Positions 56,091 through 61,242 of a stretch of 64,000 bases of DNA are shown piece after piece. The notes beneath the pieces are model-generated. The model worked only from the letters and a program-made list of their open reading frames with translations. It ran no database searches and was not told where the DNA came from. The DNA is taken from assembly GCA_040387855.1 (NCBI GenBank), contig JAZKCY010000001.1:632793-696792 (forward strand), in the 5' to 3' direction. The DNA is from Patescibacteria group bacterium (GTDB lineage Bacteria > Patescibacteriota > Minisyncoccia > Phycocordibacterales > JAKAEA01). Within the stretch, counting starts at the first letter, position 1, and every line of letters starts with the position of its first letter. The translations under genes and the position numbers were made by a program.

Positions 56091-56537
56091 TTACTCACAT
56101 CCCCATCCATCATTGTCTCGGTCAAGATCAAATTCATCATAGCCGAGTACCTGTACTTTCCCAGTATAATTTGGTCCATTGCCTGATCCGCTTCTACAAT
56201 CATAATCCCCGGCGCCAATTTTCAAACATCCAGAATAATTTGTATTACATACAGGTTCTGATTTCGGTTCAGGTGGAGGAACTGGTTTTGGAGTCGGTGC
56301 AGGAGTTGGAGTAGGTACTGGTGTAGATTCAGGTTTTGCTACGGATTGAGCAACAGGTTTAACTTCTGGTGGTATTGCTGGCTCCTTTTTTACTTCAGGT
56401 GTTTTTTCTGCAGCCTGATTCTGAAAAGGCATCACTACAGCTGCTGGCTGAGGTGATTGGACTGCTGAGGTATCTGACATTCCAGCCATTACAACAAACG
56501 CACCAATGATTCCTGCTCCAATAAGTAGTTTTTTCAT
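56091..56537 (-). CDS. secreted Pro-rich protein with C-terminal Excalibur calcium-binding domain
   Basis: Signal peptide, PTPTPAPTPKPVPPP linker, then CNTNYSGC…DYDC…DRDNDGWGCE (the Excalibur DxDxDGxxCE loop). Confidence 0.7.
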   Translation of the reverse strand: MKKLLIGAGIIGAFVVMAGMSDTSAVQSPQPAAVVMPFQNQAAEKTPEVKKEPAIPPEVKPVAQSVAKPESTPVPTPTPAPTPKPVPPPEPKSEPVCNTNYSGCLKIGAGDYDCRSGSGNGPNYTGKVQVLGYDEFDLDRDNDGWGCE

Positions 56538-56546
56538 ACAAAGACT

Positions 56547-58109
56547 TTATCTCGAATTTAAATTTCTTTTAAAATATTCTCTAAGATCAGGATCAACTAT
56601 ATATACATATGTACCTAGAATACCTCGAGTTAATAATGTCTTATAAATATTAATCACATATCTTTTTAACTCTTCAGGATCATTTACCCCTCTATGTCCA
56701 TTTGTATCGTGATATTTATTTTTATTAACAGATATTTCTTTTCTTACTGAGTCATAATATATTTCTGGACCAATAATCACACCTGTGTAATTTAAATCAT
56801 ACCCTTGAATTGTATGAATACATCCCACCTCATTAATTGAGTTCTTTGAATTAACCCAATCATGAATTTGAGAATTCCAAAATAGTTTAGTGTTCTCAAT
56901 TACAATATCAGGAATACCTTTATTAGTTTTTGAAATCCACCTCCAGGCATACCCTGCAACTAATCTACTTATCTGATGCTCTTTATCTTTCTCTTTAATA
57001 TCCTCAACCATCTTATCTAGATCATCATATATCTTGAAATCATAATCTGAAAAATTAGCTTTTACATCTACTTTTGCTTCTAATAATTTATCAATGAAGT
57101 CTATGTACTCTTGTCCCCCTTTTACTCTCATCTGTGTCTTCAATTCAAAGCTGATTGGATTTGTTTTAAGCACTTTTGTCATTGAGACATCTGAAGGACG
57201 TACTGATTGCCGCTCATCATAAAAAAGCACAACATGTTTTGCTGATTGGACTATCCAATCGAGTTCTGTGCCTTCATTGTCCAATCCCAACTTTCTATTT
57301 GTGGCGTCAAAGCTTCCATAATTTGGAATGTTTTTTCTCTGACGTAACCGGTGGGTTTCATCTACAACTACTATGTCATATTGCTTTTGAGTTATTTCAT
57401 TAGGGCCTATCACCATTGATGAATCGAGACCAGGAATACTTCTAAACACTTTTTTGAGTGTTTGTCTTAATGAGGTCATTGCAATCACTATAGCAACATT
57501 TGTATTTCCAAGTTCAACAAGTCTTTTTATAAGAAAAGTAGCTAGAATTGTTTTACCTGTACCTGGTCCGCCATGAATAATATAAGTTTGCTTTTTATCT
57601 TCCTTGAAATACTCAAGGAGCTTCATCGCTATTAAATACTGATCATCGGTAAGTGTTTTATATGGTGAGTATTTAAAAATATCGCTATTTCTAATTTGAA
57701 GAAGATCGTTTTTTGCTAGCTTTTTTTCCTGAAGTGTCTTCCACAAAAGTTCAAATTTGGTTTTATATCTTTCTCTATCAAAATAATCATGATTCTGAAG
57801 ACCTGCATTTCCATTTTGTAGAATGTACTGTCCATCAGCAACCATATATTCAATGAGAGAAGATTCAGTATCTAGAGTTGCAGACTTGTTAAACTCATCA
57901 TCAGATATGATATGAATTTTATTTAATTGTTTTCTACTTTGATTATCTAAATGTTGTTTAGTACGACTATATACGCGAACGGTCTCACCGACATAGAGTT
58001 CTTTTCCATTTTCTATAAGATACACTACAGGCCAGCCACTTCCATACTTGGAGGTGCGTATTGTTTCAACTCCAGCTTGATCAAAAGGAAATGTCTTTAT
58101 GTCAGACAT
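56547..58109 (-). CDS. GIY-YIG nuclease domain fused to DUF2075 / Schlafen-like P-loop ATPase
   Basis: The N-terminus VVYLIENGKELYVGETVRVYSRTKQH is a GIY-YIG core. The central region has GGPGTGKT (Walker A) and VVVDETHRL (DExH-like Walker B), in the DUF2075 arrangement. Confidence 0.8.
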   Translation of the reverse strand: MSDIKTFPFDQAGVETIRTSKYGSGWPVVYLIENGKELYVGETVRVYSRTKQHLDNQSRKQLNKIHIISDDEFNKSATLDTESSLIEYMVADGQYILQNGNAGLQNHDYFDRERYKTKFELLWKTLQEKKLAKNDLLQIRNSDIFKYSPYKTLTDDQYLIAMKLLEYFKEDKKQTYIIHGGPGTGKTILATFLIKRLVELGNTNVAIVIAMTSLRQTLKKVFRSIPGLDSSMVIGPNEITQKQYDIVVVDETHRLRQRKNIPNYGSFDATNRKLGLDNEGTELDWIVQSAKHVVLFYDERQSVRPSDVSMTKVLKTNPISFELKTQMRVKGGQEYIDFIDKLLEAKVDVKANFSDYDFKIYDDLDKMVEDIKEKDKEHQISRLVAGYAWRWISKTNKGIPDIVIENTKLFWNSQIHDWVNSKNSINEVGCIHTIQGYDLNYTGVIIGPEIYYDSVRKEISVNKNKYHDTNGHRGVNDPEELKRYVINIYKTLLTRGILGTYVYIVDPDLREYFKRNLNSR

Positions 58110-58112
58110 ATA

Positions 58113-58460
58113 TTAAAGCTTAGTATACTTATCGGATTTTCCTTTTGCTTTTTCTACAGAATACTTTGCTTCATTCTGCTTCATTTTTTCCTCAAACAGT
58201 TTTTTAATATCTAAACCTAGATCATGTGACATTAGAAGCACCCAATACAATACATCAGCAAGCTCTTCACCGACTTTATCTTTATTCTCCACAAGATAAT
58301 TTTCAATATCACCTTCTTTTTTCCATTGGAAATGTTCTAGTACTTCTGTTGCTTCCAGAACAAGTGAGAGCGCCATGTCTTTTGCATTATGAAATTGCTT
58401 CCAGTCTCTTTTGTCTCTAAAGTCAACTATTCTTTTTGTTAAATCCTTAATTTCAGACAT
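58113..58460 (-). CDS. MazG-like all-alpha NTP pyrophosphohydrolase
   Basis: ALSLVLEATEVLEHFQW and ELADVLYWVLLMSHDLGLD match the small MazG/NTP-PPase family. Its stop lies 3 nt before the downstream start. Confidence 0.75.
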   Translation of the reverse strand: MSEIKDLTKRIVDFRDKRDWKQFHNAKDMALSLVLEATEVLEHFQWKKEGDIENYLVENKDKVGEELADVLYWVLLMSHDLGLDIKKLFEEKMKQNEAKYSVEKAKGKSDKYTKL

Positions 58461-58549
58461 ATTTATATAAACTTATCTATAAGCCTATACCTTCTAAAGA
58501 AAAAATCAATTATTTCTAAAGTCTTCGCGAAGTCACAAGGTACCTGTCC

Positions 58550-59233
58550 CTATTTTCCAACTTCAAATACATTTGGCCATTGTCTAAGTTCGCTTGTTGT
58601 TTCACCATAAAAAATATTAAATTTTTCAATAATTTCTCGTACATGAACATGTAGGAATTGCGGCTGATTTTTAAGACTGTTTCTAGGTAATGTTAAAGCA
58701 AATACTTGGGGCTCGCTAAGACTTGTGACATTCATATCACTATTAACAAAAGAATGTTTGTGAGCATTTGCTATATCATTTAATATCTCCAAAAATGAAA
58801 TGTGCCCGGAATATTTTGATTTTATATTCCTCGCTAATTGAGAGGGCTCATTAATTAGTGCTCCTATGCAATCAACCTTCAGGATGTCAGGAAATTCTTC
58901 ATTAGCAATATAAAAGTCTTTTATATAAAGCAGTGATATGAGTTCATCTGTTGTTCTCTTTAGCCAAAAAGTAATTTCATCACTAAGAGAGTGATCGTTT
59001 ATCGGATTATATGATATAAAATCACTTGATGTTAATTCAATCAGATTTCTCTCATGCCATTCATTCAAAACTGTTATTTTTATATTAATAAGATCTAGCC
59101 TCTGTAAAATTTTAGAGACTTTTAATGTTAAATTTCCATAGGGTGTATTTGGAGGAAGATAAAATAAATGACTATTACTTATGGTTGGCTGATCATATGG
59201 ACGTTTGCCGTTATTTATAAAAGGTATTGGCAT
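58550..59233 (-). CDS. hypothetical protein
   Basis: 227 aa, no TM, no motif. Same strand and tightly spaced within the block. Confidence 0.45.
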   Translation of the reverse strand: MPIPFINNGKRPYDQPTISNSHLFYLPPNTPYGNLTLKVSKILQRLDLINIKITVLNEWHERNLIELTSSDFISYNPINDHSLSDEITFWLKRTTDELISLLYIKDFYIANEEFPDILKVDCIGALINEPSQLARNIKSKYSGHISFLEILNDIANAHKHSFVNSDMNVTSLSEPQVFALTLPRNSLKNQPQFLHVHVREIIEKFNIFYGETTSELRQWPNVFEVGK

Positions 59234-59246
59234 TTTAAGTTATATT

Positions 59247-59573
59247 TTATGATATTGGAAAGTCCAACTGTTCCTCAGGTATACCTATTGATTTACCGTA
59301 CTCCACAGCATCACTCCATGTAGACTTATCTGAATACTTTATCCAGAATATTTTGTTCTTATAGATAACGCAGACATCATCTTTTCCCTCTTCCCATGCG
59401 TGAACATACCATGGACCTTCAACAAGACTTTTTGAGATTAGTTCTATCTGTTCTTTTTCAATAAGAACATCATGTAATATCCATGAACCGGCTCTTCGAG
59501 TATTCAGAATGTTTACGGAGTCTAAAAAAGATTTATCAGTCAAACTGCTTTCTATGATTGAGGATTTAAACAT
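59247..59573 (-). CDS. hypothetical protein
   Basis: 108 aa, Trp-rich (GPWYVHAWEEG…IFWIKY…STWSDAVEYG). No family assigned. Confidence 0.45.
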   Translation of the reverse strand: MFKSSIIESSLTDKSFLDSVNILNTRRAGSWILHDVLIEKEQIELISKSLVEGPWYVHAWEEGKDDVCVIYKNKIFWIKYSDKSTWSDAVEYGKSIGIPEEQLDFPIS

Positions 59574-59586
59574 ATTTGGATTTTAT

Positions 59587-60648
59587 CTAACCTAAAAACT
59601 CAACTTCAAAAACATGATGACTATAAGGGTAACCTGAGTCATTTTTTATGAATCCTGTATTTACAACACTAATCTTTGCTTTCATGTAACTCAATGCTTT
59701 TCTTACAATATACAGACCAATACCTGATCCATTTTTACTTATTTCGCTTTTAATACCATTTTTTATATTTCTTCCTTGTCTATTTTCTAGAAATATAATT
59801 TCTTCTTCATCTTTTTCAATTGAGACACTGTCCATTGAAATTGATATTTTCTTTTGTTTCAATGCTAAATCTCCAGAAATATCTATTGTAGTATCATTTA
59901 ACACATACTTACATGCATTATCGAGGATCTGCCAAATCGCAGCATTAAACAAACTATGAACAATATTTATTTTATTTCGATCGCTGTTTTGAAGATTTAT
60001 TCTAATATCAACATTCTTTTTTTTAAGTTCATCAATAAAAGGATTGGTTAAACGATACAATGCTCTTTCGATATTTGTAGGCAATAATGTGCCAGTATTA
60101 TCAGCATATCCTCCAATGATTCTAAGTGTTTCAATTTGTGCATCTAAATCAATTGCTCTATGTGACATCTGGCATACATCATCTGCAGCTGCACTTGTAT
60201 TTTCCTCGATTCTTCGTTTAACTTCTCTAGTAAATTCAGCATAGGGTCTAGCTCTTGCCTTATCAGAAATTAAACGTACAAAATTATTTTTGAATCTATT
60301 TTGAAACTTTATTAAATTATGTGAAAATCTCCTAATAATTGCGTCAAATGATTGTCTTTGACCAACTTCAATTTCCTTAAATTTTGGAATTAAACTTAAA
60401 TAAATACTACAAGCTCTTTGGATTGCTTTACTGCCTTGAAATAAGTCAGCATTCTCATCAACTATTAGCTGAATTGAACCATTTGCATTTTCTCTAAAAG
60501 CATTTTTTAAACCTTTCTGAGAAAAATTTTCTCGATTGTTTTTACTAAAAATATCAGGCAAAAGATCTAACTGACCGTGTCTTGCCACAATATTTCCTTT
60601 AAAATTTCGTAACTCATAAAAAATAATTCCTTCACTATTTTGATTCAT
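59587..60648 (-). CDS. histidine-kinase-like ATPase with novel N-terminal region (atypical HK)
   Basis: The C-terminal has an N-box-like HSLFNAAIWQILDNACKY and a G-box GSGIGLYIVRKAL. A possible HisKA_2-like H-box is SHRAIDLDAQ. The N-terminal 200 aa is unassigned; no TM. Confidence 0.6.
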   Translation of the reverse strand: MNQNSEGIIFYELRNFKGNIVARHGQLDLLPDIFSKNNRENFSQKGLKNAFRENANGSIQLIVDENADLFQGSKAIQRACSIYLSLIPKFKEIEVGQRQSFDAIIRRFSHNLIKFQNRFKNNFVRLISDKARARPYAEFTREVKRRIEENTSAAADDVCQMSHRAIDLDAQIETLRIIGGYADNTGTLLPTNIERALYRLTNPFIDELKKKNVDIRINLQNSDRNKINIVHSLFNAAIWQILDNACKYVLNDTTIDISGDLALKQKKISISMDSVSIEKDEEEIIFLENRQGRNIKNGIKSEISKNGSGIGLYIVRKALSYMKAKISVVNTGFIKNDSGYPYSHHVFEVEFLG

Positions 60649-61141
60649 ATTTTTTTATAGCTGCTACCTCAATTTGGTCAATATAAACATACGGATCTGA
60701 ATGTTTGTCAATCCATGCATTCGCGAATGAATGAAATTCATGTCCTGGAATATAACCAGCATGCCCAGAATAAAATATGAGAAATTTTTCTGGATATCTG
60801 CTCTTTATTTTTTTTAGCAAACCGATTCCCTCTTCTGATGGGGTTAGGATTTTACCCACTCCGATGTAATCCATAAATATGATGTCAGCATTTTTTATAT
60901 CTTCTGAATCAAAATTAGTCACATCTTTTATTTGCTGAACATTCCATCCTGCACCTCTAATAATATTCAATCTCGTAGAAAAATCTTCATCATCAACAAA
61001 TAATACCTTTGTTGAACGTTTGATTTCTTCAATTGATGGTATCTTTTTTTTAGTTAAAACTTTTTTTAACCAATTTCCAGTTTTGTCCATTCCTACACCA
61101 ATAAATACTCCCGCCAGCTTTGTAGCTGCAATTTCCCACAT
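60635..61141 (-). CDS. receiver-like (REC-fold) protein with ~45-aa N-terminal extension
   Basis: KVLFVDDED (acidic pair), IIFMDY (candidate phospho-Asp), LIFYSGHA, WIDK. It overlaps the HK-like gene by 14 nt. Confidence 0.5.
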   Translation of the reverse strand: MWEIAATKLAGVFIGVGMDKTGNWLKKVLTKKKIPSIEEIKRSTKVLFVDDEDFSTRLNIIRGAGWNVQQIKDVTNFDSEDIKNADIIFMDYIGVGKILTPSEEGIGLLKKIKSRYPEKFLIFYSGHAGYIPGHEFHSFANAWIDKHSDPYVYIDQIEVAAIKKYESK

Positions 61142-61171
61142 GGTGATTTATATTATTCTATTCTTACTATG

Positions 61172-61242
61172 CTGCGGGACTAGGACTCGAACCTAGATAC
61201 TCAGGACCAAAACCTGATGTCCTACCATTAGACGATCCCGCA
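61172..61242 (-). tRNA. tRNA-Gln: tRNA-Gln (anticodon UUG)
   Basis: Hand-folded cloverleaf. Acceptor TGCGGGA/TCCCGCA with U1:A72 and G73 discriminator; D-stem GTCT/GGAC; anticodon stem TCAGG/CCTGA with loop TTTTGGT; T-stem CTAGG/CCTAG with loop TTCGAGT. No encoded CCA. Confidence 0.85.

Follow-up and report, generated by a model that had tools for sequence, protein, structure and literature searches.

In a 64,000-nucleotide stretch of a Patescibacteria genome (hereafter, the window), a MazG-like gene and a gene for a GIY-YIG nuclease-helicase fusion make up a co-inherited two-gene module. We consider it fairly likely that this module moves horizontally and belongs to the nuclease-helicase (Nhi-like) class of systems that defend against phages and other mobile DNA. 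The linkage of the two genes, their intact active sites, their patchy accessory spread, their defence-type neighbours and the recurrence of MazG as a nuclease partner all argue for this reading.

The MazG-like gene (58113..58460) encodes 115 aa and is followed by the gene for a 520-aa protein with a GIY-YIG domain and a DUF2075/Schlafen-group-3-type SF1B helicase (56547..58109). Both open reading frames had been reported at these positions in an earlier note made from the sequence; they lie on the minus strand, which that note had missed. The 520-aa protein is identical to a deposited "DNA/RNA helicase domain-containing protein" of a Patescibacteria MAG. Direct reading of the minus strand at the junction (58107..58115; ...AAG CTT TAA TAT ATG TCT GAC...) confirmed that the MazG stop codon and the nuclease-helicase start codon are 3 nt apart (TAA-TAT-ATG), and no Shine-Dalgarno-like purine run precedes the second ATG in the window junction sequence. 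A scan for promoters and terminators gave no signal above shuffled expectation.

A search of 185,579 species genomes gave at least 573 matches, which span Patescibacteria, Bacillota, Bacteroidota, Pseudomonadota, Bdellovibrionota and Cloacimonadota. In 77 of the 79 informative GTDB species loci the next gene upstream of the nuclease-helicase is MazG, an adjacency far above chance. The pairing is kept on the Bacillus thuringiensis plasmid pBMB431 at only 34% (helicase) and 43% (MazG) identity, and under inverted gene order at three loci (L081, L090 and L091). No third gene is conserved with the two: the most frequent neighbour cluster is present at 11 of the 82 loci. Across relatives, the identity matrix of one protein correlates with that of the other (Mantel r = 0.25, a value reached in 0 of 999 permutations), i.e., their co-evolution is significant but weak. 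Pairing on Bacillus megaplasmids is thus kept at 34–43% identity, and orthologous pairs are found in culturable hosts such as B. thuringiensis HD-1 (pBMB431; WP_033679414.1 and WP_016090268.1) and Clostridium moniliforme DSM 3984.

The spacer measures 1–3 nt in 60 of 82 loci, and in 73 of them it is 0–5 nt without a Shine-Dalgarno sequence. This conserved spacing fits termination-reinitiation and co-production of both proteins; the term "translationally coupled" used in the earlier note is best kept as a prediction that the spacing supports. These patterns also bear on the notion that the two are mere neighbours, a stand-alone house-cleaning pyrophosphatase beside an unrelated helicase. MazG-like proteins are indeed common as stand-alone enzymes, and about 30% of the loci in a MazG-centred census (67 loci retrieved with MazG as the query) have no tightly coupled downstream gene. 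However, the near-obligate adjacency across phyla and at low identity, the conserved spacing and the tolerance of order inversion effectively refute this notion, which we regard as almost certainly wrong.

The small protein matches the Pfam family MazG-like (PF12643; 1.5e-17, 64.1 bits against a cut-off of 27) and carries the ExxE...ExxD metal-binding motifs. Its PDB sequence matches included 4qgp (8.6e-16) and mouse dCTP pyrophosphatase 1 (DCTPP1; 6sqw/2a3q, 3.8e-14), and among 79 MazG partners E36, E39, E42, E66, D69, W46, K92, K99, Y100 and K111 are 100% conserved and W20 is 98% conserved. The similarity to mammalian DCTPP1 (RS21-C6) spans the entire protein. Both proteins have acidic metal-binding motifs, RDW..QFH, FQW and a KY tail, and they have in common the predicted pocket aromatics W20, W46 and Y72. 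His38 of DCTPP1 aligns with Ile11 of the window protein. The protein is thus predicted to be a catalytically intact DCTPP1-like all-alpha dNTP pyrophosphohydrolase. Unlike the mammalian enzyme it is a bacterial 115-aa form genetically tied to nucleases; it may prefer dCTP or 5-modified dCTP. None of the PADLOC models matched it.

In the large protein, the nuclease domain comprises residues ~1–105 (57795..58109, minus strand). The motif VVYLIENGKELYVGET...R49..QH, which the earlier note had read as an explicit GIY-YIG core, is invariant or nearly so among 69 homologues, as are the Walker motifs described below. Y30, Y39, G41, R49, H53, E82 and N99 are all invariant in this alignment, including the catalytic Arg and Glu (R49 and E82) that the note had singled out for checking. 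Judging from spacing, the catalytic Tyr, Tyr, Arg, Glu and Asn among them should correspond to Y19, Y29, R39, E76 and N88 of UvrC. The Pfam GIY-YIG model (PF01541) scored the full protein at 19.2 bits, under its gathering score of 22.6, and passed marginally (23.5 bits) on the N-terminal 140 aa alone; 22 of 23 homologues matched the family. Since PDB sequence searches with the full protein and with an N-terminal profile returned only Dda (0.0032) and no GIY-YIG match, the fold was settled by structure prediction. The AlphaFold2 model of the 520-aa protein (pLDDT 89.3, pTM 0.85) has a three-stranded beta-sheet/alpha fold with the GIY and YIG hairpin, and the repair nucleases UvrC and SLX1 are among the best structural matches of the domain. 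Fold and catalytic residue set are common to the UvrC N-terminal domain, T4 EndoII, R.Eco29kI, I-TevI, PD-T4-3 and SLX1 (identity 11–19%), none of which carries an SF1B helicase fusion, unlike the window protein. The active site, as read from these residues, appears intact.

The helicase core occupies residues ~150–515 (56565..57662, minus strand). It matches DUF2075 (now SLFN-g3_helicase, PF09848) at 3.6e-68 over residues 173–506, covering model positions 1–354 of 354. Walker A (GGPGTGKT, residues 180–187; 57549-57572, minus strand) and Walker B (VVVDETHR, residues 247–254; 57348-57371, minus strand) are present along with intact motifs III, V and VI. Invariant residues include G180, G183–K186, D250, E251, Q301, R328, H432, Q435 and G436, and R495 and G496 are invariant in 20 sequences. 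The top Foldseek matches were SLFN11, Dna2, RecD, Upf1, RecD2 and Dda. The P-loop part is a complete SF1B helicase, for which ATP-dependent unwinding or translocation is predicted. Human SLFN11, the best of these (7zel, 3.6e-10), belongs to the same Pfam family, yet its identity to the window protein is only 13% and its TM-score is low (0.37) because the helicase part alone aligns. In addition, the N-terminal nuclease of Schlafens is an RNase of another fold. Together with the near-obligate co-occurrence, the complete helicase supports the earlier suggestion of a two-gene nucleic-acid-targeting unit.

Among described systems, Nhi, Nhi-like and AbiO come closest. PADLOC reported weak matches of the large protein to Nhi (2.8e-14, residues 145–377) and AbiO (1.7e-13, residues 141–468), both of which align with the helicase part only. 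Nhi and Nhi-like also join an N-terminal nuclease to a DUF2075-type SF1B helicase within a single polypeptide and, like the window pair, are accessory genes. Nhi (Staphylococcus epidermidis SERP2475) degrades phage replication intermediates (Bari et al. 2022); Nhi-like is from B. cereus (SG141; Millman et al. 2022). They differ in having a PD-(D/E)XK nuclease in place of GIY-YIG and in acting as single genes, whereas the window system has its near-obligate MazG-like partner. BLASTP against the first 399 aa of the B. cereus Nhi-like protein aligned the Walker A motif only (E = 0.12), which falls short of homology over that region. AbiO, a Lactococcus abortive-infection protein of DUF2075 type with an anti-phage phenotype, is a single gene for which no MazG partner is recorded, and its model matches the helicase region here and leaves the GIY-YIG region unmatched.

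Operons of the kind "pyrophosphatase + DUF2075" (SG192 and SG193) have been shortlisted as defence candidates; SG192 from B. firmus gave no protection against the phage panel used, and SG193 could not be cloned (Millman et al. 2022). Cloning of the related operon SG142 also failed. SG192 and SG193 follow the same operon logic, a MazG-like pyrophosphatase with a DUF2075 helicase-nuclease, and the pyrophosphatase of SG193 shares 47% identity with the MazG-like protein of the window. Their DUF2075 protein, however, has a PD-(D/E)XK-like N-terminus of ~260 aa, unlike the GIY-YIG domain of the window, and only 27% identity in the helicase core. Literature searches for DUF2075 with MazG and for MazG with Schlafen found no relevant paper.

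In the window the pair sits in a low-GC island (56500..61141, from composition profile and PADLOC matches; GC 0.28–0.36 against 0.35–0.43 for most flanking sequence) together with two ORFs of no known function and the candidate defence pair PDC-M43A/B. The island ends at a tRNA-Gln gene (61171-61242, minus strand; tRNA scan). No att-like direct repeat of the 3' end of this tRNA gene was found that would delimit the island. Apart from one weak match, the two ORFs that separate the pair from PDC-M43 are not conserved beside other pairs. Each of the three nearest homologues (77% identity) has a different neighbourhood, and one of them is next to AIPR, a DNA methylase and an HATPase_c_3 protein. 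Neighbours vary across loci, with many restriction, toxin-antitoxin and Abi genes in a plain listing of neighbours; the immediate ones include Mrr, ResIII, MrcB_N-NucS, Fic, AbiEii, NERD, RhuM, NYN and PemK. A phage origin of the pair was also considered and rejected, relatives being present in only 5 of 2.9 million viral contigs (IMG/VR) and only 6 phage records.

About half of the relatives end in a LexA/UmuD-like S24 C-terminal domain. All 41 of the long relatives have the GDSM motif, and conservation of the Lys and of the Cys-Gly site is 90% or higher. The domain is absent from the window protein, which stops at residue 520, and no separate S24 ORF was found in the window. In the S24-tailed relatives, Cys-Gly self-cleavage would probably gate the enzyme via RecA-ssDNA. 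Such a classic RecA*-responsive switch would suit a genome-maintenance module, in which MazG cleans the dNTP pool and the GIY-YIG helicase processes lesions or stalled forks in a UvrC/Slx1-like manner as part of an SOS-like response. This explanation draws further support from the UvrC and SLX1 structural matches, from RadC, which lies between the MazG and helicase genes in some loci, from DCTPP1 being a pool-sanitising enzyme, and from the lack of phage protection by SG192. It is less easily reconciled with a patchy cross-phylum distribution, with close homologues in unrelated neighbourhoods, with the abundance of restriction, Abi and toxin genes nearby, with the low-GC island beside a tRNA, or with the coupling of the same MazG clade to restriction-type nucleases, and we consider it unlikely. 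We note, as points against the defence reading, that SG192 was negative, that similarity to the Nhi-like protein stops at Walker A, that the Nhi and AbiO models match only the helicase part and no model matches MazG, and that the S24 fusion, RadC and a "house-cleaning" MazG fit DNA repair equally well.

The MazG-centred census showed how widely this coupling extends. A DUF2075 helicase follows MazG in 32 of the 67 loci; 8 of these helicases have the GIY-YIG N-terminus and 24 a different one. In another 12 loci the MazG gene overlaps, by 4 nt, a nuclease gene from either of two other families. At least four unrelated nucleases are coupled to this dCTPase-like clade; the restriction-type ones match PD-T4-1, NOV_C and REase_II. 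In one of these families (~365 aa), the N-terminus gave marginal matches to NCBIfam PRK00809 (9.6e-07) and to the UPF0310 structures 1wmm and 2p5d (E about 0.05). UPF0310 is probably of the EVE fold, and an EVE/PUA-like reader of modified bases at this N-terminus was set aside given that the profile and PDB matches were only marginal. Neither MazG nor DUF2075 is mentioned in an EVE-domain paper (Bell et al. 2020). The earlier note had missed this MazG clade with other nucleases, the DCTPP1-like nature of MazG and the S24-fused sister forms.

The multiplicity of partners is hard to square with a specific protein antitoxin, as would be expected if the pair were a toxin-antitoxin-like or addiction module in which MazG neutralises a toxic nuclease-helicase, by binding it or by removing an activating nucleotide, and so stabilises the island. 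The layout, with a small gene tightly joined to the large nuclease gene downstream of it, the failure to clone SG193 and SG142, and frequent toxin-antitoxin genes nearby would accord with such a module. But the fully conserved catalytic residues of MazG suggest an enzymatic rather than a purely binding role, and the gene order can be inverted; we thus find an addiction role very doubtful.

Under the preferred defence reading, the helicase would load on invader ssDNA or forked DNA, e.g., replication intermediates as for Nhi, and translocate with ATP while the GIY-YIG domain nicks or cuts the invader DNA. The MazG-like enzyme would hydrolyse dCTP-type nucleotides, probably base-modified ones. 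It may keep non-canonical nucleotides out of host DNA, such that the nuclease spares self, or it may deny dNTPs, modified or normal, to the phage. A more speculative and rather improbable proposal is that, in a family of modification-sensitive restriction modules, the "self-protection" half is this MazG-like dCTPase, a pool-sanitising pyrophosphatase that replaces the methyltransferase and destroys base-modified dNTPs, whether salvaged from degraded phage DNA or phage-made. The chromosome would then never gain the mark attacked by the coupled nuclease (a GIY-YIG helicase, a PD-(D/E)XK helicase, or a NOV_C-type/UPF0310-type nuclease), and the phage would be starved of its protective nucleotide. 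If this is true, the S24-tailed forms would in addition be triggered by RecA-ssDNA, which would make them a bacterial counterpart of SLFN11 at stressed forks.

As a class of bacterial immunity, DUF2075/Schlafen-type nuclease-helicase fusions are validated yet poorly understood, and they have relatives in humans. To this class the pair adds a GIY-YIG fold, a near-obligate nucleotide-pool enzyme and, in the S24-fused sister forms, a self-cleaving tail like that of LexA. The association of one MazG clade with at least four unrelated nucleases suggests that sanitation of the nucleotide pool and DNA restriction are linked in a general way that has so far gone undescribed. The link stands out most clearly in Patescibacteria, a group whose defences have received little study.

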